Below, one piece after another: positions 44,053 to 60,350 of a stretch of DNA of 61,176 nucleotides. The first letter of the stretch is position 1; the number at the start of each line of letters is the position of its first letter. The notes under the pieces are model-generated. The model made no database searches. It was not told the DNA's origin and saw nothing but the letters and a program-made list of their open reading frames with translations. The position numbers were made by a program, and so were the translations under genes. The stretch is from a virus. Taxonomy: Duplodnaviria > Caudoviricetes. The stretch spans positions 1 to 61,176 of the IMG/VR virus record IMGVR_UViG_3300028025_001824. The stretch is one strand, 5' to 3'.

Positions 44053-45030
44053 TTAAGCAACGATTGTGTTCCAGAAGTAACCGAGGTCTGCTCCGATTAC
44101 CTTGTTATCAAATGCCATTTCCGCTTCAATGCGGTCTGACTTGATTGACTCCATGCGGAACTGTGAAGTTCCAACAGTCTGTCCGAGACCACCTGAAACA
44201 CCTGTCCAAGCGAATGTGTAACCCGCTGATGGTGTAAGAAGTCCTGGATTTGGAGCAACATGTGTAAGGAGTGCGCCCTTGCCAAAAGCAAAGCCGTAAG
44301 CCTCAGATGCGCCTTCGTTGTTAGTAGCCTTAACAGCCTTTGCAACCATAACGCGTGGAATGTCGAACATTGCCGCGAGCATATCGGTTGTGATTGTCTG
44401 TGAAGATGTGTACTTGATACGGTCTACAAGGTCTGGGTGATTCTTAAGAGCCTTGAATACATCGTATCCGAGAACGAGTGTGTTTGCTTCCATTCCTGTG
44501 TTACCAAGAATTTCTGCCTTTCCTGCTTCAAGGTCAGCAATTGGGTCTGATGATGCGTAATCTGACCAATGCTTTGTCTCACCTGATGATGGAGCGCCAG
44601 CAACACCAGTTACATCGTCTGCCCATACGCCTGTTGTGAAGAAGTCAGAAACGAACTGAAGTTCACGGCGAAGCATTAGACGGCGTGTAACGAACTCTGT
44701 TGCCTCACGGAGAGGGTTCAAAGGTGAGTCTGCGTTAGCAAGTGTCTGGTCATCTACATCTTTGTGGAAAGCCCATACATCTGCTGAGTATGTGCCTGTT
44801 GAAAGATTGTAACCGCCACCAGCAGATTCAGTTCCTGGGGCGCGGCGTTGAGCCTCGTCACGGAACCAATCGTTCTTGGTGTAAGTGAAGTATTTGTCAG
44901 ACTTCTTATCCACAGGAATTACTGGGAATACCTTGTCTGCAATGAAGTTGTCTTGGTTCTGAAGATAAGCAACCGAGATGTTTGTGAGAATAGCATCAAT
45001 GTGAACGCTATTGATATTTGGCTGTGGCAT
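44053..45030 (-). CDS. major capsid protein
   Basis: 325 aa; D..LTNISVAY.Q..FIAD.VFP; follows scaffold and cement genes. Confidence 0.88.
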   Translation of the reverse strand: MPQPNINSVHIDAILTNISVAYLQNQDNFIADKVFPVIPVDKKSDKYFTYTKNDWFRDEAQRRAPGTESAGGGYNLSTGTYSADVWAFHKDVDDQTLANADSPLNPLREATEFVTRRLMLRRELQFVSDFFTTGVWADDVTGVAGAPSSGETKHWSDYASSDPIADLEAGKAEILGNTGMEANTLVLGYDVFKALKNHPDLVDRIKYTSSQTITTDMLAAMFDIPRVMVAKAVKATNNEGASEAYGFAFGKGALLTHVAPNPGLLTPSAGYTFAWTGVSGGLGQTVGTSQFRMESIKSDRIEAEMAFDNKVIGADLGYFWNTIVA

Positions 45031-45045
45031 TTTTAGTTATCCCCC

Positions 45046-45441
45046 TTATGCCGCACGGTGCGGGTTCGCACAGTTGATTACGGCTGTGACAATGTTTCCA
45101 TCTGCCGCAGATTCGGTAAGAATTGTTCCAGCGACATACTTGGTTGTATCTGTTCCAGCAACAAGAGCAACTGCCTTACCTGCTGAAGTTGTACCAATTT
45201 GTGCGCCATCTGCGATTGCCGCACTAGCCACAATCTTTGTACCGCCAACAACAAGCACTTCTGCTTCCTGTCCTGCGATTGGAGCGTTCTGTAGTACGCC
45301 AATTGGAATATCAGTCGCGGCTGCGGCTGCAATAGCCTCACCTGATGAATTCACCTTGACGAATGTGTACTGCTTGGCGGAAAGGTCGGCACCTGCAACG
45401 AGGGTGACCTTTACCGAGTAATTACTGATTTCGTATGCCAT
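45046..45441 (-). CDS. capsid cement/decoration protein (DUF2190-like)
   Basis: AGADLS..QY.FVK...IGVLQN.P..G. Confidence 0.75.
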   Translation of the reverse strand: MAYEISNYSVKVTLVAGADLSAKQYTFVKVNSSGEAIAAAAATDIPIGVLQNAPIAGQEAEVLVVGGTKIVASAAIADGAQIGTTSAGKAVALVAGTDTTKYVAGTILTESAADGNIVTAVINCANPHRAA

Positions 45442-45443
45442 GG

Positions 45444-46223
45444 TTATGCACCCTTTTCATTACGGTATTGGACATAAAGTTCAGGATTGGAAGATGCAAC
45501 ATTAGCGAACGCCTGTTCGAAAGATTTTGCACTTCCTTCCTCAACTGCCGACTTTGCCAAAGCGGTCAAACGACCATAGGCATCGCCTGTAGTGAAGTCT
45601 GCTGATTTCCCGATTTCAGCAAAAATGTTTGCTGATTCAGCCTGAGCATTTACAGATGTGAGGATTTCCTCTACTGACTTTGCTAGGTCTGCATCAACTG
45701 TGGACAAACGGCGTAGCGCTGGTCCAACCTTCTCTGCATCAAGATTCAAGTTTGAGAATCCCTTTGCTTTTTCAATTGCTTCAGCATCAGCCTTAGCCTC
45801 GCGCTCCTTACGGAGTTCTTCGGTTGCTGTCTCTGCTTGCTTTTTGAAATCTTCAATCATTTTGACGACTGACTCAGGAGCGGACTTCATGTATTCCATT
45901 TCATCCTCGGTCTTATCTGATTCTGACTTATCTTCCTCTTTAGCCATTTCCTTTTCAGAAAGTTTGGCTTCGAGTTCAGCGATTTTCTTCATCGCATCTT
46001 CAAGTGTCATTTCAGCCTTTTCGACCTGTGCATCAGTAGCCGCGGTTGTTGTTTCCTCCATGATGGAGTCCTCCTCGGTGAGCGTTTCGTCTAAGACTCT
46101 CTGAACTTCAGATTCATCGGCTGATTTCATAACCAACCAACCTTCATGTAAGTGTGCAGGATGGTCTACTCCAGATGTTTCCTCAATGACTAAATTTGCC
46201 ATTTTGCGGGTACGAGCCAACAT
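45444..46223 (-). CDS. capsid scaffold protein with protease-like N-terminal strand
   Basis: Acidic coiled coil; N-terminal L.IEETSGVDHPA; C-terminal NPELY..Y. Confidence 0.75.
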   Translation of the reverse strand: MLARTRKMANLVIEETSGVDHPAHLHEGWLVMKSADESEVQRVLDETLTEEDSIMEETTTAATDAQVEKAEMTLEDAMKKIAELEAKLSEKEMAKEEDKSESDKTEDEMEYMKSAPESVVKMIEDFKKQAETATEELRKEREAKADAEAIEKAKGFSNLNLDAEKVGPALRRLSTVDADLAKSVEEILTSVNAQAESANIFAEIGKSADFTTGDAYGRLTALAKSAVEEGSAKSFEQAFANVASSNPELYVQYRNEKGA

Positions 46224-46323: not shown

Positions 46324-46587
46324 TTAAGAAGAAATCAAAATCCTCAAATTAACCAAGGCGGCTATTAAATCTTCAAAAGCCATCATTGAGAATGGGTTAT
46401 CGCTCTGCCAAAATCGGGCAACTCGGAAATGATAATCTCCTTCGCCCATCTCGCTCCAGACAAAAAAGACCTGAGAATCGTTAGGCAACTTGGCTACAAT
46501 CCCAGCAAATCTAGGCGTTGTTGAGACCCAACTTACTTCTAAACCCATACCTCGCAATATATTGATGGTGTCATCAATAATGCTCAT
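46324..46587 (-). CDS. hypothetical protein
   Basis: 87 aa, abuts the upstream stop. Confidence 0.7.
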   Translation of the reverse strand: MSIIDDTINILRGMGLEVSWVSTTPRFAGIVAKLPNDSQVFFVWSEMGEGDYHFRVARFWQSDNPFSMMAFEDLIAALVNLRILISS

Positions 46588-47142
46588 TTAACTTGTATAC
46601 CTCTGGCTAGGCGTAATTCTGGATGGGCGCATAATGTCCATGTCATCCATCCAGCGTGGGTCATCGGCATCTAATTCTTCGTATTCTTCTTCTGAGTCAT
46701 CATTATGGGAATGAAGTTTTTTTGGACTCTTAGGATTCTTTGGCTCGGACTCATCTTCGCCTTCGGAGTCATCTGGGTTGTACTTTCCGTTTGCCCATGC
46801 GCCATGTGAGCCTTGGTCATGGCTACCGTGTTTTGCTACTTCAGAGTTTTTTTTTAGAGTGGACATCTTATGTCCTACTTTTGTTTCAGTTGGCTTTCCA
46901 TCTCGGTACAACTGAATAAGAACTGCTGGGTCATCTTCTGTGCCAGTAATTGTAAAACTTGAATCAGGAACATTTATCTTTCCGTTAGAGACAACTCGAA
47001 CTACCTTGCCTCTTGCGCTTCCGCCTGAAGAATTCCAAGAAACCATATCGCCACTCTTTACAGATTTAGCCTTTTCAAAATCAACTGCGTAAGCGGTGAG
47101 ATTTACTGGCTTACTGTCTCCATCATTGACGATAATTCCCAT
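46588..47142 (-). CDS. head-region protein with Tudor/DUF2945-like domain and HDQ tag
   Basis: GDMVSWNSSGG.ARG.V...VGHK.STL; KHGSHDQGSHGAWA. Confidence 0.7.
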   Translation of the reverse strand: MGIIVNDGDSKPVNLTAYAVDFEKAKSVKSGDMVSWNSSGGSARGKVVRVVSNGKINVPDSSFTITGTEDDPAVLIQLYRDGKPTETKVGHKMSTLKKNSEVAKHGSHDQGSHGAWANGKYNPDDSEGEDESEPKNPKSPKKLHSHNDDSEEEYEELDADDPRWMDDMDIMRPSRITPSQRYTS

Positions 47143-47840
47143 TACTTCACCTTTGGTTTCTTCTTCTTCGGATTCATAATTGTATCAACATGGACATCAT
47201 TGACTCCTGGACCATCTTCTTTCTCAATTTCTTCCATATCAACATAAAGGCGCTCAGCCTTACCGCCGATTGAATAACCAAGAATCTTTCCTTCTTTGAC
47301 TAAATCCCAAGCCCAAGGTTCCCAGATAACACCGAGAAATACTGTGTTTGGTGGGTATGTGTGGCTTACTTCTAATCCAGTTATAGTATTTATCGGAACT
47401 GTTAATTCGTATGGGAACGCCATAACTTCTACCCATTCTCCAGCAACCACATCGCGGTTATGCTGTAGACGGATACGGCGGTCATTGCTCTTTACATAAT
47501 CCCAGACTGCGCGTTGCAACTCATCTGAATCTGTCCATTCACCGTGAGCATCAATACGGTCTGGGATGTACATGGCTCCGAGTGTGTAGCGCTTGGCTTC
47601 CTCTGCCTTAGAAACTTCATAAGCCCCAATGCTCTTTGTGAGTGCAAAGGCATCAGGGAATGACTCTTGCGCTAGAGACTCTGTAATTTCTTCATAATCA
47701 CCTTCGCCCATAACTAGATAGGCAGAGATGTTGCGCGTTGGTGTCCAGCCTTGTGTCGGATACCAGCGTTCTTCATTGATTATGTCGAAGCGATACAGGT
47801 TAAACGGTACGCCTCTACTCATTTTGACGAAATATCTCAT
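47142..47840 (-). CDS. XkdF-like prohead protease with N-terminal extra domain
   Basis: RYTLG..Y.PD..DAHGE...LQH...W..VK.G...GYSIGG. Confidence 0.8.
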   Translation of the reverse strand: MRYFVKMSRGVPFNLYRFDIINEERWYPTQGWTPTRNISAYLVMGEGDYEEITESLAQESFPDAFALTKSIGAYEVSKAEEAKRYTLGAMYIPDRIDAHGEWTDSDELQRAVWDYVKSNDRRIRLQHNRDVVAGEWVEVMAFPYELTVPINTITGLEVSHTYPPNTVFLGVIWEPWAWDLVKEGKILGYSIGGKAERLYVDMEEIEKEDGPGVNDVHVDTIMNPKKKKPKVK

Positions 47841-50065
47841 GCTTGTCCTCCTCTCTTGGGAGTTATATTACCAACTGGGGTTGATTTAATCAAGCCAGCC
47901 TCTTGAGCGGTTTGGAATGTCTGTAGAACGAGACTTCCTGTAGCCAGAATAGACCCATAGTTAGATGGGCGGGTTACGCCCTTGGCAATTTCAATCATCT
48001 GATTCCACATACTCAGACGGCTGGAATCATTCAACTCAACCTGATAAGCCTTATAGATTGGGTGGGTTCCACCCTTACCCTCTTTATGCTCAAATGAACT
48101 TGGGGTATGCAACTGAATCTCTACCTCAATGCCGTCTTTCTTAGCCTTGATATTGACTCCATCGTAAGGGTCACCAGATTGCCAAAAGTTCTTAACTCGC
48201 AATGTGAAGCCAGATGCCTCAAGAGCCTTGACTGTTGAATCAAGGGATTGAGCGTAATTCTCATCGCCTACCTTTAGGGTATAGCGAACTGCATCGGAGA
48301 CAGCATCAGCCGCTCTTGACCTATCGCCATCAAATTCCGTAACTGCATCGCTATCAATCTTGCGAGCCAATGAATCTGTTGATTTAACTCTTTGTTCTAA
48401 TTGAACAAATTCTCCACCAGCATTTTCCTGAATGGTTTTCATTAGTTCTGTAACTTTTGGCTCAACTGCAAGCGCTCTTTCACGGATGCGCTTAGCCTCG
48501 GCAACTGCTTCGAGTGACCATTTTCCTTGAGGTTCAACATCTGGCGCTAACGCAGGAACATCACCTGTTGCACCCGTAGCCCATGCGCCGTGAGTTTTTT
48601 GGTCGTGTTCTCCATGTTTTACGAGAGGTTTCCATGCAAGAGATTTCTTTGCTGGAGCATCAATAGCCTGTCCTTCAAATCCATTGGCGGTAGACCATTC
48701 AAGAGAAATATCTAACGCTTCTTGCGCTGTTACCGATAGACGATAAACAGGTAACTTGGTGCCAGGATTATCAAAGGCAAAAGCAACTGAAGCGCCCCAT
48801 GTATGGTGACCATCAATCACGAAACCATCGCTGGAAATCAAGATTCGTTCTTTTTCTGGGATGCCGCCATCTTCGCGGAACTTATTAAAGATTGCTCCAG
48901 AGCGAGATGCAGAAATTTCTTTCTGAACTGGCTTTAGCGTGGTCGGGTCTACTTCTTCAGCCGTTGATGTAATACCCTCAGACTTTTCAATTTCAGCAAG
49001 AAAGCGACCCCGTTCTTTTCCAGGAATCTGTGGCATATCTTTACGAGCAATTCCCATACCTTCATCGCCGTATAGCAATGTACCTTCAATGCTCAACTCA
49101 GTAAGGTCTGGGTGGTCATCTCTTTTAGCCGCTTTCATTAAGAAAGCAGAAACATTTTCTTTCTCAACTGTTGGGTGACCACCAGCCAAAATTGCATCAG
49201 CGATTCCATCCGCCCAACTTCCATGGGTCTTTTGGTCATGCTTACCCTGATTGTGCTTTTCAATTTTCTTATCATCTTCAGCGACTAAAGACTCAGCCCA
49301 AGCGAATCCTGCATCTCCGCCCCAAGCATCCCAAGCAACTCGACCCGCGCTTGGATAGCCCTTTTCTCCTTGGCTAAATCCAACTGCATCCTTATCAACT
49401 TCATGGCGTGAGAAGAAAGACTTCATGCGCTTAAGTGTCTGCATAGTTACTTGCTCACCTGAAGCCAACTGGTTAGCGCGAGCGCGACCAACTCCCGTAA
49501 ATCCGCTTCCAGCCTTGCCTTCGCCAATCCAATCAAGCGCTCTACGAGCCGCGCTACGAACTGCCTTCGGAGGTGTAAATGTTTCTGCCTTCTTAAACTG
49601 GTGCATCTGGGCTAGGCGATTTTCAGCCTCAGCCTTTGTGTCGTATGTGCCAAAAGGTCGCTTGCCTTCTTCATCGTAAACTGTCCATTTTCCGTTTTCA
49701 CGGCGAATCATTTTGTTTACTTCTTCAACTTCTTCAAGGCGCATTTCGTACCCAGTAGTAGTTAAGAAAAGTTGCACATTGGCAACTGATGAACCTGTTG
49801 ATTTAATAACTTCTTCTACCATCTCAGCGGGTAGTGAACCTTTGAGAGATTCTAGGTTTGCTCCCTTGAGAGTATCTACGAGAATCTCGAACTCATCCCA
49901 CGCATCATTGGCTGGGGCTTCTAAGCCACGGCGCAACATCTCATTGATTGCTAGATGGTGGACTTCCAATACCTCTGGAGTGGCTTCAGACTTATGAAGG
50001 CGTTCGTGTAGAGCGCGTAGTTTATCCGCGCTAAGTTCTACGAGTTTTGGTGCAATATCCGCCAT
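47837..50065 (-). CDS. polyvalent head protein with ParB-like and RelA/SpoT-like domains
   Basis: LKPVQKE...DGHH; RVKS.DS..RK...DAVRYT...YDGVN...EIQLHT; two HDQ tags. Confidence 0.75.
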   Translation of the reverse strand: MADIAPKLVELSADKLRALHERLHKSEATPEVLEVHHLAINEMLRRGLEAPANDAWDEFEILVDTLKGANLESLKGSLPAEMVEEVIKSTGSSVANVQLFLTTTGYEMRLEEVEEVNKMIRRENGKWTVYDEEGKRPFGTYDTKAEAENRLAQMHQFKKAETFTPPKAVRSAARRALDWIGEGKAGSGFTGVGRARANQLASGEQVTMQTLKRMKSFFSRHEVDKDAVGFSQGEKGYPSAGRVAWDAWGGDAGFAWAESLVAEDDKKIEKHNQGKHDQKTHGSWADGIADAILAGGHPTVEKENVSAFLMKAAKRDDHPDLTELSIEGTLLYGDEGMGIARKDMPQIPGKERGRFLAEIEKSEGITSTAEEVDPTTLKPVQKEISASRSGAIFNKFREDGGIPEKERILISSDGFVIDGHHTWGASVAFAFDNPGTKLPVYRLSVTAQEALDISLEWSTANGFEGQAIDAPAKKSLAWKPLVKHGEHDQKTHGAWATGATGDVPALAPDVEPQGKWSLEAVAEAKRIRERALAVEPKVTELMKTIQENAGGEFVQLEQRVKSTDSLARKIDSDAVTEFDGDRSRAADAVSDAVRYTLKVGDENYAQSLDSTVKALEASGFTLRVKNFWQSGDPYDGVNIKAKKDGIEVEIQLHTPSSFEHKEGKGGTHPIYKAYQVELNDSSRLSMWNQMIEIAKGVTRPSNYGSILATGSLVLQTFQTAQEAGLIKSTPVGNITPKRGGQA

Positions 50066-50096
50066 GTGTACATAGTAGCGGATTGATTTTTAACCC

Positions 50097-50246
50097 TTAT
50101 TCAGATTTTTTAAGTATGGTTTGAATCTTGTCTGTAAGCGCGATTTCGTCTTGGTCGGATGAACCTGTTTCTGAAGTGAACTCAGTAACGGCAGACCATT
50201 CACGCCATGCCTTTTGAATCTCTCTTAACTTTTCATCTCTACTCAT
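50097..50246 (-). CDS. small protein (49 aa, MSRDEKLREIQKAW...)
   Basis: Read by hand; leaderless TAGGAT-6 nt-ATG. Confidence 0.6.
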   Translation of the reverse strand: MSRDEKLREIQKAWREWSAVTEFTSETGSSDQDEIALTDKIQTILKKSE

Positions 50247-50264
50247 AGCCATATCCTACCACCT

Positions 50265-52850
50265 TTAGTTATTCGCTGGAGCGGGAGCAGGTCTTTCTCG
50301 ACCTGTTCCGTCATAAATCAAGCCATCGCCATCACGGTCAATTGGTCCAGATAGGAGACTGCGACCTTCAGCAGTAAGAGGTTTTACATAATCAACGGAG
50401 AAGCCATAAAAACCTGCTTTGCCAAGCCAAGTCGGTTTTCCTTCATAATCCTTACGCCTATCGTAACCAAGCATGGCGAACTCGGCTGGGAATGGGAAGT
50501 CTGGGCTTTTCATGTCTCTCACCTCTCCCTTTTCTTCATCATAAAGTCTGCTATAAAGCGACTTAAAATCATCAATATCTTCTTGAGTAAAGAAGCCTTC
50601 TGGGGATTGTTGGATTACAGCCTCGACATAACTTTTCATTCTGACTGCCGTATTTGCAACTCGGTCTGGGTCAAAGTCGTATCCAGCATTAGCCCAATGG
50701 CGAGCGCCATCTTCAAGACCAGCAAGAACTTTTATGTAACCGAATCCTCTGTGAGTAAAGAAATCTTCAGTCTGTTGAATAAAGGCTTTTGCAAAACCTG
50801 TTCCCCTATGTTCGCCATCCATCTGTAGCCATTTATGCTCAACCGCCCAAACACCCGTAGTTGGGTCTTTGAAGAAAAGTCTCTCAAACTTTCCTACTGC
50901 GTTATCGTTTTCGTCATATACCCAGCCTTCTACATAAACCTCTCGCTTCCCGTCTAGGGCTAGGTCGCCATAAACCTCAGACATTTTTCCTGCATCAGTA
51001 ATTCTTGACTCAAGAGTTCTCTCGACACCATCTTTATCTGTATATGTATGTTCCATATTAAACACTTCTTCAAAAAATGGCATTAAGTTTTTTACAGATT
51101 TGCCAATTGCTTCTCTAATTTTTTCGGTGTAGTCATCCCGCTCAATTTCAATATAAGCCTTGATTCTTTCTTCTGTGACCCTATCGGTCATTTCATTAAT
51201 CATGGCTTGAGTAGGAGACTTTCCTTCTCTTTCTTCATAATCGTTAATCTCAGCCTGAACATAATTGGCAATAGCCTGTTCCACAAGTGGATAAACCTTT
51301 TCATCATTCAAAAGCATTTCACGCAACTCATCTTCGCTTACTGGGTCAAAAAGAGCATCTAAATCCTCAAGAGCGAAACCGCGATTTTCCCATTCAGCAA
51401 TACGGGCTTTTTCTTCATCTGTATACCCAGCGGTAGCCCAAGAGCCATGACTCGCTTGGTCATGCTGACCTTCAAGATGTTTAAGGGTAGGGATTAGCCC
51501 CGCTTGGAATTTAATAACCTTGTATTGCTTCTCAAATGTCTCTGGAACTTCCCAGAACTCTTTTGGCAGGAGAGCCACTTTCTGCTCAGCAAAGACTTTA
51601 CCGCGTGAGTTGTACCAAGAATTTTGTCCACGGGTTTCTGTTGTAAGCGCACCCCGAGCGGTCTCTGTAAACATCTGGGAGTGGTGAACCCAAGCCGATT
51701 CTTCTCCATCTTGACCGAAACCTCGACCTGTCGCCGCGTGTCCAAAGAAATCGTGAACTGCTCGGAACTTGTCGTTCTGTTCATCTGAAAGAAATGGGTG
51801 TGAGCCTGTTGAGGCTGTACTTAATACTTTTAGAACTCCCTTGCTTACATCTGCAAACATCTCTCTGGAAGTTTTGTATGGGTCATCGGCTACGAATTCA
51901 ACCTTAACGCCCAAGGTCTTTGTCATATATTCGAACTGCGCTTCTACCTCTGTAGCAAGGGCTGTGTAGGCTGGGAAAGCATCTTCATCAACCGTAGGCA
52001 ACTCATCGTAAGCATCGGCAATACGCGCCGCTCTTGCTCGGTTAGCAACTGTCTTTTGATAGTCAATGGAATCGTCTTGCTCAATTCCTGCTTTGAAGGC
52101 GTACTCTTTCGCGCCGTCTCTTGCTGACTTAACTGAATCTGGACCAAAGCGACCAGATGCCCAAGAACCGTGTGTGGCTTGGTCATGCTGACCCTCTAAG
52201 TGTTTTTCTACGCCTTGGTATCGCCCGAGGCAGACATGGGGCGATTCTTCTCGATTGCGTTGAGAATCTCCTCCGCGAACGCTTTCTTCTGCTCTGGAGT
52301 CATTTGATTGACGGGGATTGGAACTTCCACCATCAACGGCTTTTGTTGTTCTGTCATCTTCCTCATCTTTCATGTAGATATATTCATCATTGTCAATATC
52401 GTAAACAGATTGTTGGTCGTTTTTGAACCCAGCGCGAACTGCTTCACCTCTGGTGTCATAACGGCGTGAGACATCAAGGTACACGCTTCCTTGGTCTTTT
52501 ACAACCCATATACCAAAATAGGCTCCGCGCTCGCTAAGTGCATCTGCGTTCTTTTCGATGTAATCCAGAAGAATCTTTCGGCTACGGTCTCGGCTTGAGA
52601 AGAAATCATCGTAGGAAACTGTTTCCTCAGCCCCAGCGTTGGAAGCCATGTACCCGCTAGTAGGTTCGTTGCGACTAGAAATATCTAGGCTGAATCCAGT
52701 CACGCCCTTTTTACTTAGTCGGTCAATAATTCCAGTAGCGATTGTGCCACCTGTTGCCCAATTGCCGTGGGTTTTCTGGTCATGCTCACCATGCTTTTTT
52801 ACGGCTTGAATAATCTCAACATCTTCAAGAACGGTTCTAAATTTACTCAT
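50265..52850 (-). CDS. polyvalent head protein with zincin-like and GNAT domains
   Basis: YLDVS domain; FRAVHDFFGH...GEE; HRGTGFA...G.RHWA..GYDF; three HDQ tags. Confidence 0.75.
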   Translation of the reverse strand: MSKFRTVLEDVEIIQAVKKHGEHDQKTHGNWATGGTIATGIIDRLSKKGVTGFSLDISSRNEPTSGYMASNAGAEETVSYDDFFSSRDRSRKILLDYIEKNADALSERGAYFGIWVVKDQGSVYLDVSRRYDTRGEAVRAGFKNDQQSVYDIDNDEYIYMKDEEDDRTTKAVDGGSSNPRQSNDSRAEESVRGGDSQRNREESPHVCLGRYQGVEKHLEGQHDQATHGSWASGRFGPDSVKSARDGAKEYAFKAGIEQDDSIDYQKTVANRARAARIADAYDELPTVDEDAFPAYTALATEVEAQFEYMTKTLGVKVEFVADDPYKTSREMFADVSKGVLKVLSTASTGSHPFLSDEQNDKFRAVHDFFGHAATGRGFGQDGEESAWVHHSQMFTETARGALTTETRGQNSWYNSRGKVFAEQKVALLPKEFWEVPETFEKQYKVIKFQAGLIPTLKHLEGQHDQASHGSWATAGYTDEEKARIAEWENRGFALEDLDALFDPVSEDELREMLLNDEKVYPLVEQAIANYVQAEINDYEEREGKSPTQAMINEMTDRVTEERIKAYIEIERDDYTEKIREAIGKSVKNLMPFFEEVFNMEHTYTDKDGVERTLESRITDAGKMSEVYGDLALDGKREVYVEGWVYDENDNAVGKFERLFFKDPTTGVWAVEHKWLQMDGEHRGTGFAKAFIQQTEDFFTHRGFGYIKVLAGLEDGARHWANAGYDFDPDRVANTAVRMKSYVEAVIQQSPEGFFTQEDIDDFKSLYSRLYDEEKGEVRDMKSPDFPFPAEFAMLGYDRRKDYEGKPTWLGKAGFYGFSVDYVKPLTAEGRSLLSGPIDRDGDGLIYDGTGRERPAPAPANN

Positions 52851-53611
52851 TTGTCCACCCTTTGAAAGACTGCGACCTTATCCTCAGACCCTATACCTCT
52901 TTTGTACCCCAAAAATAACAAATCCGTACTGCGAGGTAATAGAACTTCTTTCTCTCTATCTGAAACTGAACTCGTATCATTGACGGAGGTTCGATAAAGG
53001 TCTACGGCAATTCCCTTACCGCTCTTGGTTGGGCTTGGAAGAATGACAGCAACGGTATCAGGTGTGTCATATATTTCGCCAAGCGCATCCCGAGCATCCG
53101 TATCTTTGGTTAAATCTATTCGTGTAGTTGATAGATAACCCTTATCTCTGAGAGTGTCGCCTGGGGCTAACTGCGCTAAAACAAAATTATCTACGACTCG
53201 GAATAAAGTTTTATCTCCGAACATATCTGGAGCCTTATCAATCAAAGAATCTAACCCATCAACCTTTTCTTGAAGAAATTTTATTTCATAAGAATCTTCA
53301 AAACCTCTTGGGTTGCGAAGAAACGCGTTTATATTTTTATATCCCTCTTGAGAATAACTATCAATAGCATCATGCTCAAAGGTTTCAACTCCAACGATTT
53401 TGCCGTCTCTGTCTACTCCATAGCGCTCGCTATAAACCATCAATGCTGGGTCATATTCAGATTCTTCATCGAATGTGCCTAGGGTTAATAATTCTGGATA
53501 ATTCTCACTTAAAGCCCAGTTACCATGAGTGGATTGGTCATGTTCTTGATGCTTAGACATGACAATAGTAAGACCATTGCTGGAATCGTATTGGAATCTC
53601 TCTAGGCTCAT
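52847..53611 (-). CDS. ADP-ribosyltransferase (VIP2/Alt-like) with HDQ tag
   Basis: Y..IN..LR, LFR, GYLSTT, EKEVLLPR. Confidence 0.82.
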   Translation of the reverse strand: MSLERFQYDSSNGLTIVMSKHQEHDQSTHGNWALSENYPELLTLGTFDEESEYDPALMVYSERYGVDRDGKIVGVETFEHDAIDSYSQEGYKNINAFLRNPRGFEDSYEIKFLQEKVDGLDSLIDKAPDMFGDKTLFRVVDNFVLAQLAPGDTLRDKGYLSTTRIDLTKDTDARDALGEIYDTPDTVAVILPSPTKSGKGIAVDLYRTSVNDTSSVSDREKEVLLPRSTDLLFLGYKRGIGSEDKVAVFQRVDK

Positions 53612-54468
53612 GGAATCAACTCTACATCCCAGACCTTGCCGCGCTGAGCCACAACTTTGAATTTGCTACCACGCGGTAATAAGAACTCAGCCTCGTTTGC
53701 ATTTCTATCCCAATTTTCTTCGCTTTGGTCTTTGTAACCTGCTGGAAAAATTCCTTTGCTACCCGCTGGTAACCTCAAGCGCATTGCAAGACCTTGGTAC
53801 ATACTCCCCGATGTTCCAAATTGCTGAGCAACTCCAGCATCAATAGTTGTAGAAACATAACCTTTATCTTCGAAAACATCGCCAACTTTTAACTTCTCAA
53901 AGAAATTTAACCCGTTGCCTTTGATACCGCGATATGCAATTACTTCCTCGCGTAGAGGAGGCGCAGTTTCAATGGCTCTATCAAGGTACTCAATAGTGTC
54001 TCTAAATGCACTTTCACTTACTTGAGGGTCTCTTAAGGCATCATTCAGACTATAGCCGATAGCGCTTTCATATTCTCCTATTGCTCGGCGGAACTCTGGA
54101 TACTTCTCCTCTGTGAAACCTTCTTTGCGTTGGCTTAAAAGCATTTCAGCAAAATAGGCATCTCTTTCTTTCATTGAGCCAAATACTTGCATCTCATCGC
54201 TATACCATTGAGCCAAATCTTCATAGTTTCCTGATGCCCAATTGCCGTGTGTTTTTTGGTCGTGTTCCCCATGCTTCTCGACCATATCCACATCTGTAGA
54301 AATATAAACCTCATCCCAATAACCTTTGGCAAGGATTGAGGTAAGGCTACGAGACTCAAACTCTTTACCGTCTGCCTTTACATGGGCATAGATAATTCCA
54401 TCTTTCATCTCATCAAAAATTACTAACGAGCCACTTTTTTTGGCATAGAGGGTCTGACCTTTAATCAT
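53608..54468 (-). CDS. ADP-ribosyltransferase (VIP2/Alt-like) with HDQ tag
   Basis: YSLNDALR, YRG, GYVSTT, EAEFLLPRG. Confidence 0.85.
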   Translation of the reverse strand: MIKGQTLYAKKSGSLVIFDEMKDGIIYAHVKADGKEFESRSLTSILAKGYWDEVYISTDVDMVEKHGEHDQKTHGNWASGNYEDLAQWYSDEMQVFGSMKERDAYFAEMLLSQRKEGFTEEKYPEFRRAIGEYESAIGYSLNDALRDPQVSESAFRDTIEYLDRAIETAPPLREEVIAYRGIKGNGLNFFEKLKVGDVFEDKGYVSTTIDAGVAQQFGTSGSMYQGLAMRLRLPAGSKGIFPAGYKDQSEENWDRNANEAEFLLPRGSKFKVVAQRGKVWDVELIP

Positions 54469-56388
54469 TTATCCCTCCTCTTTTGGTAACGGCAGAACTT
54501 CAACTGGTATGTCAAAGCCTTTCGATTTGAGCGCTGTGCGGATTGATTCCGCTTGTGCCACATGGTCTCTCGGGGTGTATTCGTAGGTATTGTCATCGAA
54601 ACTCTTAGAGGGTACTACATAAACAGCCTTTATATCTTTAAGTTTTACTTGACCGTAGACCTGAGCCTCTGCGTAACTCTCACGCTGGAATCCGCCATGG
54701 CTGGATGAAAGGTCGTAATAGGCTCCAGCATTGATAAGGTCGGTCTTTGTGTTACGGCTTAAAGGCTGAGGAATTGCGTGTCTGTCCAATGAATCTGGGA
54801 TTGTGTATGAGGTGCGCTCCCTAACCTCATCTTTGAGAACAACCCGAACTTCGCCGTATTGACCTACACCTGTGTTATTTACATTCCACTTATCGGTGTT
54901 ATACGGGGATGTATTAGGAGTCTTTCCGTCATTTTGTACTGCCAAGTAACCGTAGATAGGGCGCTCAGATGCTTTTGTATCAAGGGGAACTCCAGCCATA
55001 GCCAACTCAGCCTCTCTGCGTAGCGCTGGCTTGTAGGCTCCGTTTGATTCTCTGGTTTCGTGTTGAGTCTTAAATCTGCCATCCTTGATAACGCCAAGAA
55101 AATCTTCGGTCTCAATTGCTACAACTGGAGAAGCCTTAGATATATTTTCAGCAAGAGTTTTCATAGTCTTTGCTCTTTGCTCAAAATATTCTCTACTGCC
55201 GCCCTTTTCTTGGTAGTCGCCAAAATCTCTTGAGTAAGTTTTTTCTGCCGCTTCTTGACGAAGTGCTTCGTTGTACATAGTTACATACATAGATGCTCTG
55301 GATGCAATCGCTTGACCGTAATAAAGAGCCTGACGGGAACCCATTCCAGCATCTAGGGCTTCCTGCCGAGCAGAGTTTTCAATCTCCTCATAATTACCGC
55401 CAAGCATTTTTTCTTCATAATCTCTGAAGATTTGAGCGCCCTCTGGGTCATCCCACTCGTAAGGCGCTCTATATGTCATAAATGGTTGGTCTAAACTGTC
55501 ATTAACTGGCTCTCTTACAGTTAGATATTCATAGCCAGAACCATCTTCTTTTGGCTTGTAAGTTCGCCTTCCTCGCGTAACTTCATCTTTTTTAGTAATT
55601 AAACCGTCATCAAAATACTTCTTAAGTGACCCTTTTATATCTGCAAGTTCGTGAGGCAAACCAGATGCCGCCCAGCGACCATGGGTAGATTGGTCATGCT
55701 GACCCATAAGATGCTTTTGAACCGCTCCACCAATATCGGCTTTATTCACAGTTAATTTATCGGCATTGAACAGAACAACTTCAGCCCTACCCGTTGCATA
55801 GACTGAATAACCGTCATAACCTTTTGCCGCCCAATAAAGGTTTGCAATATCTGAATCAGAAAAATTGTCCATCTTGCCAGAAGTGATTCTTTCCAAAATC
55901 TTTGGCATATCTAAAGATGATTCTTTATCAAACAGGCTAAATGCTTTATTCCAAGCAATTTCACCTTCAACCAACTTAGCGCTTTTATCCAATCTTAAAC
56001 GAATAAGTTCACCATAAGATGAAGCGTAATCTGGTTCAGAAGAAACATAAATGCCCTGCCCCCATGTCTGAAATGGCGTAAAAGGAATTCTTCCATCTAA
56101 TAATCTTTGAGCATCTCTATCAACATCCGTAACTCCACGGTAAAAGTTAATTTCATCTTCAGAGAGATTTTCTAAGGATGGCTTCATGCTCTTACCTAGG
56201 CGCTCGGCAACCTTGCGATACATCTCATCAACTGTTTTTGAACTGGAAATAATGTTACTGATTTCATCATTTGATAACTCGGTGGTTGTTCCTTGAGACC
56301 CTTCAGCCCAGTTTCCGTGGCTTGACTGGTCATGCTCTTGATGTTTTAGAACTGGGATTAACCCAGGCTGGAATTTAATTACCTTCAT
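54469..56388 (-). CDS. polyvalent head protein with two ART-like domains (second is DUF3626-like)
   Basis: YRG...G.GIY...A..Y...GYDG...EVV; GRFKTQHET..S...ERPIYG...YG...DS...YAEAQVYG; two HDQ tags. Confidence 0.72.
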   Translation of the reverse strand: MKVIKFQPGLIPVLKHQEHDQSSHGNWAEGSQGTTTELSNDEISNIISSSKTVDEMYRKVAERLGKSMKPSLENLSEDEINFYRGVTDVDRDAQRLLDGRIPFTPFQTWGQGIYVSSEPDYASSYGELIRLRLDKSAKLVEGEIAWNKAFSLFDKESSLDMPKILERITSGKMDNFSDSDIANLYWAAKGYDGYSVYATGRAEVVLFNADKLTVNKADIGGAVQKHLMGQHDQSTHGRWAASGLPHELADIKGSLKKYFDDGLITKKDEVTRGRRTYKPKEDGSGYEYLTVREPVNDSLDQPFMTYRAPYEWDDPEGAQIFRDYEEKMLGGNYEEIENSARQEALDAGMGSRQALYYGQAIASRASMYVTMYNEALRQEAAEKTYSRDFGDYQEKGGSREYFEQRAKTMKTLAENISKASPVVAIETEDFLGVIKDGRFKTQHETRESNGAYKPALRREAELAMAGVPLDTKASERPIYGYLAVQNDGKTPNTSPYNTDKWNVNNTGVGQYGEVRVVLKDEVRERTSYTIPDSLDRHAIPQPLSRNTKTDLINAGAYYDLSSSHGGFQRESYAEAQVYGQVKLKDIKAVYVVPSKSFDDNTYEYTPRDHVAQAESIRTALKSKGFDIPVEVLPLPKEEG

Positions 56389-57395
56389 CGGGTGCCTCTA
56401 TCTGGTGGCAAGATTACGAAGGTGCAACGGCAATTAGGGTGAACTATGGGCTTCTCCAGCCCAATAGAGAAGGTTCCAAGCCAAGGTACGACTTCTCCAT
56501 TCAAAGGCGCACAAATGTCGCAGGTGCGCTCATCTGGGGCTGTAATCCACATTTTCATTGTCGCTGGGTCAATGTATCCCGCTTCATCGGCTTGGCGATA
56601 GCCTTCCAAACGCCCTTCATTCTGGGCTATCTGAATCTCTGTGCGAGCAATTGTCTTAGCGCGAGCGCTTTTGAGGCGGTCTGCATACGCGGTAGCAGAT
56701 TTCTGGGCGCGTTCGATTGCTTGAGCCTCTTTGATACCAGCCTTAATTAAACGGTCTAGTTCACGATTCTCAAACTTTCGAACGGCATCAGCCCACTTAG
56801 GATGGAGACCAATTATATTTTTGATTCGAACGGCTGTTCGTCTTACATCAATTTGCTCATTGAAAGAATCAATAATTATTTTGCGGATTGCCTGACGGGT
56901 TAAATCATCAATACTCTGCACCAACTGTCCAGCCCTACGAGATGCGAAGGCTAGGGAATTAGGGTTTGTCTTATCGAAAGAAAGGCTAAACGCAATTGGC
57001 TCTGGATTAACTCTTGCCCAATTAGGAATCTTTGAGAAATCCATATTTGCCATGGCTTCAGGATTAGCAATTCGAACTTGGGTAGGGGTAAATGCTGGTA
57101 ACGCCAACTGAGGAGCAATATCTTTTAGCCCCTTGATTGCATCTTTTCCACCTAGGTCAATAATGCTAAGCAACTGATTTTCAATCTTGTTTGCATCACC
57201 TTGAATTGAGATTGCTCGCAGTAATCGGTCAAGGGTGTCTGCATCAAGTCGCCCAAGAATCTTGGCTAACTCATCTACCTTAATTTTGTCCGTTGCATTA
57301 CGGATTGCATTGACAAGGACACGCGCCATCGCCGCTTCCTCGGGTGTGAGAGGGTTTCTGGAGCCATCTGAGCCAGAGCCGAACCTAATTGCCAT
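56385..57395 (-). CDS. MuF / SPP1 gp7-like head morphogenesis protein
   Basis: RAKTIARTE...W....DERTC.IC..L.G...HPNCRC. Confidence 0.9.
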   Translation of the reverse strand: MAIRFGSGSDGSRNPLTPEEAAMARVLVNAIRNATDKIKVDELAKILGRLDADTLDRLLRAISIQGDANKIENQLLSIIDLGGKDAIKGLKDIAPQLALPAFTPTQVRIANPEAMANMDFSKIPNWARVNPEPIAFSLSFDKTNPNSLAFASRRAGQLVQSIDDLTRQAIRKIIIDSFNEQIDVRRTAVRIKNIIGLHPKWADAVRKFENRELDRLIKAGIKEAQAIERAQKSATAYADRLKSARAKTIARTEIQIAQNEGRLEGYRQADEAGYIDPATMKMWITAPDERTCDICAPLNGEVVPWLGTFSIGLEKPIVHPNCRCTFVILPPDRGTR

Positions 57396-57398
57396 GCT

Positions 57399-58829
57399 CT
57401 ACTCCAAATCGCCGTCTAGCGGTTCCTGTCCTTCTGGAATATCCAGTTCTTCTTCCAAAGATGGCGGTGCATCAAAGTTTTCTGGAGCCGTAGCGCCTTC
57501 TGCATCTGGCATCGCTGGAGCGCCGTAGGCTTCTTGTCCATCATGCTCGGCAGGTGGTAATCCAGCCAAATCACGGAGATAATCTTCCAACTTAGGGTCT
57601 GGCATAAGAACACCAGCGGTAGCCAACTTGGTTACGAAGTCTGAAATCTCAGTCAAATCAACATGGCTTACTTCTCCGTAGGTAAGGTACGGGCATCGTG
57701 AAGCATCCATTCCATTAAGTTTTAGAAGGCGTGGAATCGCATATTGATTAAATACCTCAGCGATATTTTTAGCGATTGAATCAACTGCCATTGACCACAA
57801 ATCCATCTTGGTTGAGCCAAGAGCATAAGAACCAACGCGGTCTGAGCCGAGAAGAATAAAGTCTGAAAGGATTGACATAGACATACGCTGGTCATAGCGC
57901 TGAACAATCTTGTCTGTATCGAACTGACGAGAACCGCCTGAAGATAAGAGAACTAGGTCGAACTGCTTATGTCCTGCATCATCGTAAAGCGTTGGAAATA
58001 CAACACCCTCTTGCTCATTGCGCTTGATAGATGTGACGATGTTTTGAACTGTTGCTAAAACATTTGCTTGCTCGGCTGTAGCCGCACTTGATAGATACTC
58101 AGGTGGTACATAGGCAACTGGCAAACCTGCAAGGTCGCGTTCGATACCAACTGCTTCGATTTCCTCAATACGGCGCTTGAAGAACCAAGGGCGATATGCG
58201 TTACGAAGGATTGAGCGACCTTCTGGGTTATTTTTAGCGGTGGTTGTACGGAATAACAAAGCCTTTTCGATAGGGATGATGTGAGTGCCACCCGATGATG
58301 GGTCGGTCTGCTCCATTGCTTGAATTCCACCGCGCTCATCAATCTGCCAGCGGAATAAAGTTTCTTGCGAGCGGATAGGCAACTTGCGCCATCCGATTTT
58401 ATTATCTGTGTGCTTAGAGCGCTTAGATGGGTCTTTCGCATCTGGACCTGTACGCACTTTGTAAACAATTTCGTTATAGGAGTATCCGTAAACGAGCATT
58501 GAAAGAATTTGTGAAAGTGTTTGGTCCCATGAATCTGACATATCGTGCAAGCAAGAATCAATAAACGCCGCGACTTCTTCATCTTCAGGTTTTACATCTC
58601 CATCTACAGAATTATCTGAATATGGGTCTACGCGCCACTCAAGACGAGTAATAACCTTTTCAATCGCATAAAGCATTGACCCGATTGTTGGGTCATTGTC
58701 AGCCATTTCACGATAAACGCGAGCGCCACGAAGCCCACGAAGATTAACTAAGAATTCTTCGTAAACCGTTCCACCTGAACGGCGTAGCCCAGTAGAGCCG
58801 AGTTCCTGTAAATCTGGCTTTTCTGCCAT
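57399..58829 (-). CDS. portal protein (Mu gp29/DUF935-like)
   Basis: NPEGRSILR.AY..W..K...ERDLAG.P...GSYALG; upstream of MuF. Confidence 0.88.
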   Translation of the reverse strand: MAEKPDLQELGSTGLRRSGGTVYEEFLVNLRGLRGARVYREMADNDPTIGSMLYAIEKVITRLEWRVDPYSDNSVDGDVKPEDEEVAAFIDSCLHDMSDSWDQTLSQILSMLVYGYSYNEIVYKVRTGPDAKDPSKRSKHTDNKIGWRKLPIRSQETLFRWQIDERGGIQAMEQTDPSSGGTHIIPIEKALLFRTTTAKNNPEGRSILRNAYRPWFFKRRIEEIEAVGIERDLAGLPVAYVPPEYLSSAATAEQANVLATVQNIVTSIKRNEQEGVVFPTLYDDAGHKQFDLVLLSSGGSRQFDTDKIVQRYDQRMSMSILSDFILLGSDRVGSYALGSTKMDLWSMAVDSIAKNIAEVFNQYAIPRLLKLNGMDASRCPYLTYGEVSHVDLTEISDFVTKLATAGVLMPDPKLEDYLRDLAGLPPAEHDGQEAYGAPAMPDAEGATAPENFDAPPSLEEELDIPEGQEPLDGDLE

Positions 58830-59381: not shown

Positions 59382-59813
59382 TTAAAAAGGCGCAACATCC
59401 GAACCGAATGGAGCGCTCCAAGGGTCAGGCGTGGATGGATTGAATGAGGCATCTGTGCGCTGGACAACGCTTGCGGTGGTTACATGGCGCTTGAGGTCAA
59501 TTCCAACATTCCATGCGGTGACGGCAATCTTTGAGCGCTTAGCCCCTGTCGCCTTGTCATCCCAATTCTCTTGAACTGCGGTTCCGACCACAATCACGGA
59601 CATTCCCTTTTGAACTGAATCGGCTACATTCTCTGCGGTCTTACCCCAACATTTAATATCCCAAAATGTTGTATCGGTGTTTTCCCATGAGCCATCGGCT
59701 TGCTTGACTGATTTTGATGATACGACTGTGAAGGTTGCAATTGCTTTTCCGCTAGGGATAACACGCAACTCTGGGTCGGCTACTACATTTCCCGTTATAG
59801 TTAATTGAGTCAT
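59382..59813 (-). CDS. ssb: single-stranded DNA-binding protein
   Basis: ITGNVVADPELR...AENVADS..KGM.VIV.G...DPW...PF. Confidence 0.92.
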   Translation of the reverse strand: MTQLTITGNVVADPELRVIPSGKAIATFTVVSSKSVKQADGSWENTDTTFWDIKCWGKTAENVADSVQKGMSVIVVGTAVQENWDDKATGAKRSKIAVTAWNVGIDLKRHVTTASVVQRTDASFNPSTPDPWSAPFGSDVAPF

Positions 59814-60106
59814 TAGATTCTTCCTTCGGTAATAGGTATCGGGATGATATTTAGTTTTGTTCTCATGCTTTGTCTTTCTCTGGCTGAGGTTCCTCCCCAG
59901 ATTCCGACTACTGTGTAATGTAACGCGTAGGTCAGACATTCTTGTTTCCAAGGACACCTGCTACACATTGCCTTTACTTTTTTATTCTCCTCCGTGATTT
60001 TGTTCTTGTCTGGAAAATAAAACTCTGTATCAATCTGCGAGCAAATCGCTCCCTCGAACTGCCACGGTTTCAACACTAATAAATACTTCTCTCTCCTCAT
60101 TGACAA
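59813..60106 (-). CDS. whiB: WhiB family transcription factor
   Basis: C...FP...C..C....C..YA...GIWGGTS..ER. Confidence 0.9.
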   Translation of the reverse strand: MSMRREKYLLVLKPWQFEGAICSQIDTEFYFPDKNKITEENKKVKAMCSRCPWKQECLTYALHYTVVGIWGGTSARERQSMRTKLNIIPIPITEGRI

Positions 60107-60350
60107 TCAGCGGATATGGGGAATTAGGAGATAACCTAGCCAATAAATTGCCATTACGCCATACCTTGCCACCAGCAATTCCATCGTAATTAGAACTCTC
60201 TGGCTTTACTAAAGAGTCACACTCATTCCAGAATTTACAATTTCGGCAATACTGCAACCCAGGCTGGGCAAGGTCTAATTGATATTGGTCAAAGAGCCAC
60301 GGGTCTGAATTGCGACAAGGCGCGTTATCAATAAACTCTAATAAACTCAT
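60030..60350 (-). CDS. divergent WhiB-like protein
   Basis: CRNSDP.LF...CRNC....C...DGIAGG. Confidence 0.7.
   Translation of the reverse strand: MSLLEFIDNAPCRNSDPWLFDQYQLDLAQPGLQYCRNCKFWNECDSLVKPESSNYDGIAGGKVWRNGNLLARLSPNSPYPLIVNEEREVFISVETVAVRGSDLLAD

Follow-up and report, generated by a model that had tools for sequence, protein, structure and literature searches.

Toxin and effector domains of temperate phages can enter the capsid at the portal/MuF locus, as is the case with the polymorphic toxins that are fused to MuF. In encapsulins, short and portable cargo-loading peptides direct unrelated enzymes into an HK97-fold shell; each cargo has one such peptide, usually at its C-terminus, which remains uncut. 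For the entry of phage polyvalent proteins and other injected effectors into capsids and their separation into working enzymes, the published proposals are MuF fusion and self-processing by metallopeptidase domains. According to passages of Iyer et al. 2017 (PMC5512222), polyvalent proteins contain ADP-ribosyltransferase (ART), DdrB-like ParB, RelA/SpoT, zeta kinase, metallopeptidase (MPTase), and GNAT domains and are encoded beside virion genes, often fused to MuF. They are thought to be packaged and injected, and MPTase-mediated self-processing has been proposed for them (PMC5512222). Here, we describe a complete record of an uncultured Caudoviricetes virus (IMG/VR IMGVR_UViG_3300028025_001824; 61,176 bp, referred to as the window), in whose head module a His-rich peptide of about 17 residues, referred to as the tag, recurs ahead of unrelated effector-type domains. 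In the literature searched, passages of Iyer et al. 2017 included, no description was found of the tag motif, of its recurrence ahead of every domain, or of its breadth. By contrast, the kind of function that we propose for it is already known, as passages on the targeting and processing propeptides of T4 and phiKZ-like phages indicate.

Internal proteins of T4 are directed to the core by an N-terminal propeptide, the capsid targeting sequence (CTS), which the prohead protease removes (PMC9026906, section 2.6). Like the tag as read below, the CTS is a short portable peptide on head-packed, injected proteins, is tied to the prohead core, and can be carried over to foreign proteins. However, it has about 10 residues, lies at the extreme N-terminus, and is present once per protein, whereas the tag has about 17 residues, is His-rich, and precedes every polyprotein domain in many lineages. 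The likeness lies in the kind of function, presumed in the case of the tag, and is drawn by description, not by sequence. In phiKZ and SPN3US, a single prohead protease processes numerous head and ejection proteins at S/A-X-E (PMC9026906, section 3.2; propeptide cleavage is also treated in PMC5694885, PMC7411985, and PMC10052503). Those motifs comprise three residues, are degenerate, and end in Glu, whereas the tag is a long near-invariant block in phages with HK97-type S78 or S78_2 proteases. In the P1 Dar system, DarA and DdrB are proteolytically processed and built into the head (PMC5512222). These anti-defence proteins are therefore both processed and head-packed, but the passages describe no shared tag for them, and head type and gene order differ. 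The passages of Iyer et al. 2017 likewise describe no shared inter-domain motif in polyvalent proteins, with the supplement outside this comparison. The tag resembles encapsulin peptides, by description, in being a short portable peptide on unrelated enzymes. In contrast to the MuF polymorphic toxins, MuF of the window is tailless and the effectors are separate tagged genes, while MuF fusions of other lineages carry the tag after MuF.

In the window, the tag has the form V-x-K-H-x(2-4)-H-D-Q-x2-H-G-x-W-A-x-G. A six-frame translation contains ten matches to the pattern HDQ..HG, all on the minus strand and none on the plus strand, against a mean of 0.005 and a maximum of 1 in 200 shuffles. All ten HDQ tripeptides of the minus frames fall within tags. 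The residues K, H, H, D, Q, H, G, W, and A are invariant over the ten aligned copies. As a first-pass annotation of this DNA had counted, the copies are split over six genes between MuF and the scaffold (2+1+1+3+2+1), and no copy is present elsewhere in the window. That annotation had also placed the tags at domain boundaries, and structure models agree: in AlphaFold2 models of the 742-aa and 861-aa proteins, all five tags lie in or overlap inter-domain segments with a predicted local distance difference test (pLDDT) value below 50.

All genes and tags of the window described here are on the minus strand. The 639-aa cargo protein (54469..56388) consists of a leader, tag 1 (LKHQEHDQSSHGNWAEG, residues 14-30; 56299..56349), a weakly ART-PolyVal-like domain, tag 2 (QKHLMGQHDQSTHGRWAAS, residues 224-242; 55663..55719), and a DUF3626-like domain. 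It is followed by two single-tag proteins. The 286-aa protein (53608..54468) carries a 60-aa N-terminal piece, tag 3 (residues 64-80; 54229..54279), and a VIP2-like ART, and the 254-aa protein (52847..53611) carries a leader, tag 4 (residues 19-35; 53507..53557), and another ART. The 861-aa polyprotein (50265..52850), whose model has three folded blocks, contains a leader, tag 5 (residues 18-34; 52749..52799; within the pLDDT<50 segment 1-35), the 'YLDVS' domain, tag 6 (residues 215-233; 52152..52208; within segment 161-236), a phrog_3170 domain, tag 7 (residues 456-474; 51429..51485; within segment 438-474), and a GNAT-like domain. The 742-aa polyprotein (47837..50065), which matches phrog_2859 over its full length, contains a conserved N-terminal domain, tag 8 (residues 269-287; 49205..49261; overlapping segment 266-282), a ParB/Srx-like domain, tag 9 (residues 482-498; 48572..48622; within segment 465-501), and a small-alarmone-synthetase-like domain. 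Two unrelated effector-type domains thus share one polypeptide. Tag 10 (residues 103-119; 46786..46836) belongs to a 184-aa protein (46588..47142) with an Hva1_TUDOR domain (Pfam E 3e-9), a slippery A-run, and, after the tag, an acidic tail. The tag had been said to precede an acidic tail at its tenth position, and it does so, following the Tudor domain. Tags 1 and 7 share an additional upstream stretch, V-I-K-F-Q-x-G-L-I-P-x-L (56340-56385 and 51476-51521), with 78% DNA identity over 46 nucleotides (nt), and relatives carry F-x-x-G-L-K-P-[VI]-[LF]-K-H ahead of the GNAT-like domain. The upstream stretch of tags 1 and 7 is a longer tag subtype.

The domains behind the tags differ in how firmly they can be named. 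The two ADPrib_exo_Tox ARTs are solid (Pfam E 2.3e-18 in the 286-aa protein and 2e-10 in the 254-aa protein), as is the RelA/SpoT-like domain, which matches the small alarmone synthetase 8vx3 (profile E 6.5e-18; Foldseek E 2.6e-8; Z 18.3). These labels of the first-pass annotation stand, and four others are weak. DUF3626 scores 23.3 bits in the window, under the Pfam cut-off of 27, and 40.2 bits, over the cut-off, in one relative; ART-PolyVal has an E-value of 0.093 in the window; GNAT is detected at the fold level alone (Z 6-7; Foldseek E 4.7e-3); and ParB/Srx has Z-scores of 5.5-6.0 and no Pfam match. Whole-model fold searches gave results dominated by one domain per model. The domains labelled 'YLDVS' and 'HDxxGH zincin-like' matched no named family in a Pfam scan. 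The latter matches phrog_3170 and gp205 of Rhodococcus phage E3, called a 'structural protein' in its GenBank annotation alone, and has further homologues in cluster C mycobacteriophages; neither these nor the E3 homologue is tagged. In addition, the alarmone-synthetase-like domain (47837-48571) aligns with the NCBIfam XopAD/skwp type III effector family over the C-terminal portion of that model (E 7.7e-23, far under its full-length cut-off) and, at the fold level, with the type VI secretion effector Tas1 (Z 12.8).

The tag was then followed into related loci. Searching IMG/VR with the tag alignment gave 329 matching stretches, 193 of them confirmed; the 80 best of these were used, which represent 77 distinct loci. 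These loci contain 505 strict tags, all on one strand and all between MuF and the scaffold, and a tag outside this interval is present in 0 of the 77, which bears out the earlier claim that the tag is confined to the head module. MuF is upstream of every tag in 70 loci, and the remaining seven begin inside the array. Scores of a tag hidden Markov model are bimodal: 516 tags in 307 open reading frames (ORFs) reach at least 12 bits, and nothing scores at 5-12 bits. The logo of 419 unique contexts reads V-x-K-H-G-x-H-D-Q-[KS]-[TS]-H-G-[NS]-W-A-x-G, and its limits are sharp, with information content at background outside positions -6 to +11. Gene order is the same in the 77 loci, with the tagged genes encoded among virion genes, between portal/MuF and protease/scaffold/capsid. 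The order runs from portal and MuF through variable tag-headed cassettes to a YLDVS-(phrog_3170)-GNAT-like block, continues with an N-domain-(ParB-like)-alarmone synthetase block and XkdF, and ends with Tudor(-tag-acidic tail), p87, scaffold, and capsid.

Behind the tags, 31 payload clusters can be distinguished, among which the cassettes shuffle. Eighteen of the 31 occupy at least two positions, and nine occur both as stand-alone ORFs and within multi-tag proteins, so that the earlier description of the tag as a portable unit heading unrelated payload domains holds. Inter-tag pieces have 98-343 aa and leaders 8-42 aa, and some proteins have domains of 100-270 aa ahead of the first tag. Payloads of relatives include a zeta-toxin kinase (E 1.2e-22), NUDIX, DUF3626, and ART-PolyVal, as well as weak matches to SprT-like (E 0.0011) and ATLF-like (E 1.2e-5) metallopeptidases, DUF6782, and GNAT. 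Judged by sequence, the tagged loci encode phage polyvalent proteins as Iyer et al. 2017 understand them.

The contexts in which the tag meets MuF and the prohead protease are the most informative for its function. The MuF-like head morphogenesis protein of the window (336 aa; 56385..57395; phrog_3517 E 3e-58) is tag-free. As had been noted, it has no toxin domain fused to its C-terminus, only 10 residues following its Pfam Phage_Mu_F domain (218-326). The tag had been taken as a substitute for fusion to MuF. This part of the earlier interpretation is not supported, as the same tag separates domains within MuF-fused and prohead-protease-fused proteins. In proteins P0006, P0036, and P0121, an N-terminal MuF domain is directly followed by the first tag. 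In locus L097, a 2541-aa tagged protein that starts with MuF comes next after the portal gene, and an XkdF gene lies further along the record. Two records that are 100% and 97% complete (L090 and L094) encode, in order, terminase, portal, a 706-730-aa protein, capsid, adaptor, a 255-aa tagged protein, and a 1880-1944-aa protein with eight tags; the 706-730-aa protein consists of an S78 protease, three tags, and a helical scaffold-like C-terminus. In P0123 (XkdF-like) and P0148 (S78), a tag directly follows the N-terminal protease domain. P0024 is XkdF-like, with a tag right after G-Y-S-V-G-G and then two Tudor-like pieces, each headed by a tag. Within the window lineage, L036, L039, L044, and L071 have XkdF attached downstream of a tag, as does L059 with a shorter match. 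MuF and protease fusions already enter the head, so cutting accounts for the tag within them better than targeting does.

Wherever completeness permits the question, the genome that carries the tag also encodes a prohead protease. In the window this is an XkdF-type serine protease (232 aa, tag-free; 47142..47840; Pfam Peptidase_S78_2 E 8.9e-11), whose gene sits within the tag array and which the first-pass annotation did not mention. Its alignment shows invariant D-A-H99 and G-Y-S190-I-G-G. Outside the window lineage, all three records in which a protease could be sought have S78 or S78_2 (G002, 41% complete, S78_2; G003, 100%, S78; G004, 97%, S78), and two records without a protease match are fragments of 46% and 14%. 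Complex prediction for XkdF and a tag peptide scored 0.00 in both runs, with controls not run, and is evidence neither way.

Comparison of tag sequences gives further information on inheritance. Tag identity is 0.587 between tags with the same downstream and different upstream domains, 0.480 with the same upstream and different downstream domains, and 0.486 when both differ; the sequences being related, these values are a description and not a test statistic. Judging from them, the tag travels with its downstream payload. In 150 other tagged proteins, tags ahead of unrelated payloads in one protein have an identity of 0.702 (586 pairs), while between proteins the identity is 0.539, and only 0.564 with related payloads (2859 pairs). 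This within-protein homogenisation would fit one recogniser per genome, or gene conversion.

Beyond the window lineage, a tag profile (A3, 102 tag windows) was compared with 1.84 billion representative proteins. It matched 857 proteins (50%-identity clusters) at E<=0.001, 261 at <=1e-10, and 18 at <=1e-30. The top matches are giant proteins of 7059 aa with 20 tags, 3023 aa with 10, and 2201 aa with 9; the last contains nine tandem ARTs (Pfam, nine stretches), each preceded by a tag. The best 150 proteins contain 461 tags with a median spacing of 206 aa. Many tags are internal, and the first tag starts within 40 residues in 103 of the 150. Variants retain K-H...[HG]-D-Q-x-x-H-G, and W-A is replaceable; conservation is widest at K-H and D-Q-x-x-H-G. 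No family covering the tag emerged when tag-rich proteins were compared with Pfam and NCBIfam, and the tag profile had 0 matches among PDB sequences at E<=10.

The search of cellular genomes and cultured phages was negative within its limits. In one genome each of 185,579 prokaryote species, 59 pattern matches were found, none was confirmed, and the chance estimate was of the same order; the tag is therefore not a prophage feature. Among 50,697 GenBank phage records, megablast with the head-module DNA had no match, and tblastn with a 35-aa tag window (E<=10) had none, a search limited by the short query and the low-complexity filter, in a collection from which close relatives of the window may be missing. 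Under the same limits, tblastn with the P0002-type tag gave two chance-level matches (E 0.9, in a helicase gene), and no cultured phage with the tag was found. A variant of the KHLPGQHDQ..HG type is present in protein P0002. Its presence in MuF or protease proteins of cultured actinophages was not confirmed, the loci of Laroye, Kovu, Rizal, and E3 being without it. P0002 had no pattern match in viral contigs, in which the pattern HDQK[ST]HGNWARG occurs at three loci only.

We propose that the HK97-type prohead protease recognises the tag and processes proteins there, and that the tag also serves as a loading signal similar to the T4 CTS, a proposal that we consider evenly poised between right and wrong. 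On this reading, the tag is a short disordered signal that can be moved between proteins and borders each cargo domain on its N-terminal side, and one phage-encoded head factor would recognise it in trans. The most likely candidate is the prohead serine protease, XkdF/S78_2 in the window and S78 elsewhere. Recognition would tie the tagged proteins to the assembling procapsid core, and inside the procapsid the protease would then cut the polyproteins at every tag. The freed enzymes (ADP-ribosyltransferases, alarmone synthetase, acetyltransferase-like, ParB-like, and others) would lie loose in the capsid and be ejected with the DNA. Each of these steps, from trans recognition through cleavage and loading to ejection, as well as the bond that is cut, is inferred. 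Interchange of fused and split genes would be expected, since fused products would be cut at the tags anyway. Because fused proteins already have a route to the capsid, the function common to all contexts is more likely boundary processing than loading alone. A loading role is probable in addition, since stand-alone cargo proteins also retain the tag. Indirect hints that tagged proteins may be present in virions come from the annotation of E3 gp205 and from phi24B gp47, a polyvalent protein of 2811 aa that was detected in virions by proteomics (bioRxiv 10.64898/2026.04.10.717836).

Several points weigh against this proposal. Stand-alone proteins keep the tag although there is nothing to separate (e.g. 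73 single-tag ART proteins), so that cutting alone is insufficient and a second role, loading or another, must be assumed. Portal, MuF, scaffold, and capsid proteins are untagged; if the protease processes these, other sites are used. The same motif would need to be recognised by two protease families, S78 and S78_2. Kovu and Laroye, the cultured phages closest to the window in their portals, encode a LigT-like 'RNA ligase' domain joined to a following XkdF domain, and this fusion is untagged (best 3.1 bits); the protease thus does not need the motif to live in a fusion. The count of protease co-occurrence is small, with three records and the window lineage, and both cleavage and packaging of the tagged proteins are presumed.

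An unlikely though serious alternative is that the tag is purely a docking peptide, which would load proteins by binding the scaffold, the capsid interior, portal/MuF, or the Tudor-like protein and would stay uncut. The position of the first tag near the N-terminus in 103 of the best 150 proteins, behind leaders of 8-42 aa, agrees with docking. So do the restriction of tags to the head module and the homogenisation within proteins, which fits one receptor, and a Tudor-tag-acidic-tail protein made by frameshifting (described below) could be the adaptor. Yet one tag per polypeptide would suffice for docking, whereas each domain has its own, up to 20 per protein, and tags are also found inside MuF- and protease-fused polyproteins with an existing route to the head. 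Alternatively, the tag may be a functional piece that is retained, neither a cut site nor a loading signal: a metal-binding knuckle of three His and one Asp, a handle for unfolding or tail passage, or a hold on enzyme activity until delivery. The invariant His, Asp, Gln, His, and Gly are typical of metal-ligand chemistry and the tag is inherited with the downstream domain. We nevertheless rate this as fairly improbable, because the payload folds are unrelated and the tag is not part of their catalytic cores, because it is modelled as disordered and no solved structure with the motif was found (0 at E<=10), and because tags right after protease and MuF domains, together with homogenisation, stay unexplained unless there is a common partner.

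The cut could also be made by another peptidase, either a zincin-like enzyme carried by the array or a host protease, after ejection into the host. Processing of polyvalent proteins by MPTase domains is proposed in passages of Iyer et al. 2017 (PMC5512222), and some cassettes of relatives weakly match metallopeptidases (SprT-like, ATLF-like, DUF6782). No window cassette has a recognisable metallopeptidase match, however, and many related loci are without the SprT-like cassette c18, whereas an S78-type protease is present wherever the record is complete enough; we take a peptidase of this sort to be improbable. That the tag has no function at the protein level, and is a conserved DNA junction promoting cassette recombination, is disfavoured and seems to us very remote. 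Cassettes do shuffle at tags, but the ten 47-nt copies of the window are only 62-87% identical in DNA, differ at synonymous sites, and have no two 27-nt cores alike, while nine residues are invariant. Selection therefore acts on the tag peptide and not on the DNA, and the tag is kept across lineages of very different composition.

The Tudor gene at the end of the array has a feature of its own. Just upstream of tag 10 lies an A9 slippery run (CTAAAAAAAAACTCTGAAG on the coding strand; 46839..46857). In 18 relatives (L007, L010, L014, L023, L028, L030, L033, L041, L042, L048-L051, L054, L064, L067, L072, and L073), the Tudor ORF stops right after A_AAA_AAG or A_AAA_AAA, and the tag and acidic tail continue in the -1 frame without a start codon. 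In the window and 10 other loci, Tudor and tag/acidic tail are in one frame. The window and its near-identical kin keep the A9 run and owe the joined frames to a difference of a single base; contigs of four runs from four studies cross the A9 site of the window without an indel. The slippery run probably represents programmed -1 frameshifting in a head gene, which would give Tudor and Tudor-tag-acidic tail in a set ratio. The acidic tail (46588-46785) ends in a conserved DADDPRWMDDMD motif, D-A-D-D-P-[RK]-W-M-D-[DT]-M-D-[IY], which is kept even in divergent relatives and could be a binding peptide for another head protein.

The remaining head genes of the window are as follows. The portal protein (476 aa; 57399..58829; Pfam Portal_Mu E 3.2e-42) is 56-58% identical to the portals of Arthrobacter phages Kovu and Laroye. 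Downstream of the Tudor gene are p87, a conserved 87-aa protein (46324..46587) that keeps its position in related loci and has no Pfam or PHROG match, and a tag-free scaffold-like protein (259 aa; 45444..46223; phrog_13547 E 4.6e-85), for which we infer the label 'scaffold' from its position between the protease and capsid genes. A small gene with no Pfam match (45046..45441) separates it from the gene of the tag-free major capsid protein (325 aa; 44053..45030; Pfam Phage_cap_E E 2.5e-6). The N-terminal region of the scaffold-like protein starts with VIEETSGVDHPAHLHEGWLVMKS, which in our estimation resembles a strand motif at the N-terminus of PBSX-type XkdF proteins, and XkdF itself ends in a conserved V-H-V-D-T-I-M-N-P-K-K-K-K tail (47142-47200). 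Together, the two termini may be a split or swapped protease/scaffold element. In Laroye gp18 (L089 14381-15502) and Kovu gp20 (L088 14023-15156), annotated as 'RNA ligase', a 2H/LigT-like domain with H-x-T motifs is joined to an XkdF domain, and Laroye gp17 and Kovu gp18, annotated as 'capsid maturation protease' or 'head maturation protease', look like MuF proteins extended at the C-terminus. These labels are probably mis-annotations.

With respect to the host, a WhiB transcription factor gene is present on the minus strand (59813-60106 and 60030-60350 region; Pfam E 2.3e-16), overlapped by a second Cys-rich ORF without a Pfam match. WhiB and a portal nearest to those of Arthrobacter phages suggest an actinobacterial host. 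In 13 public runs from 9 studies (freshwater, lake water, subsurface, and plain metagenome), at least half of the sampled words of a 1253-base stretch were found. VIP2-like ARTs of freshwater phages were earlier read as anti-predator toxins in passages of PMC6802176. Tagged ARTs in a head-cargo array fit injected, host-directed effectors at least as well.

The presence of a sharply defined label at every cargo boundary makes the question of how cargo enters the capsid and is separated directly testable. The tag also offers a straightforward way of searching metagenomes for injected effectors, among them domains without a known family. More broadly, and more tentatively than the proposal for the window, the tag may be a general 'address plus cut here' label for HK97-type capsids, by which any domain behind it would be recruited to the procapsid through the protease, cleaved, and injected, with the frameshifted Tudor-tag-acidic tail possibly acting as a cargo organiser. 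If this holds, phages would combine enzymes for host takeover and against host defence as cassettes and could rearrange these mixtures. If the tag proves portable, proteins of choice could be loaded into HK97-type capsids with its help, much as the CTS has been used in T4.

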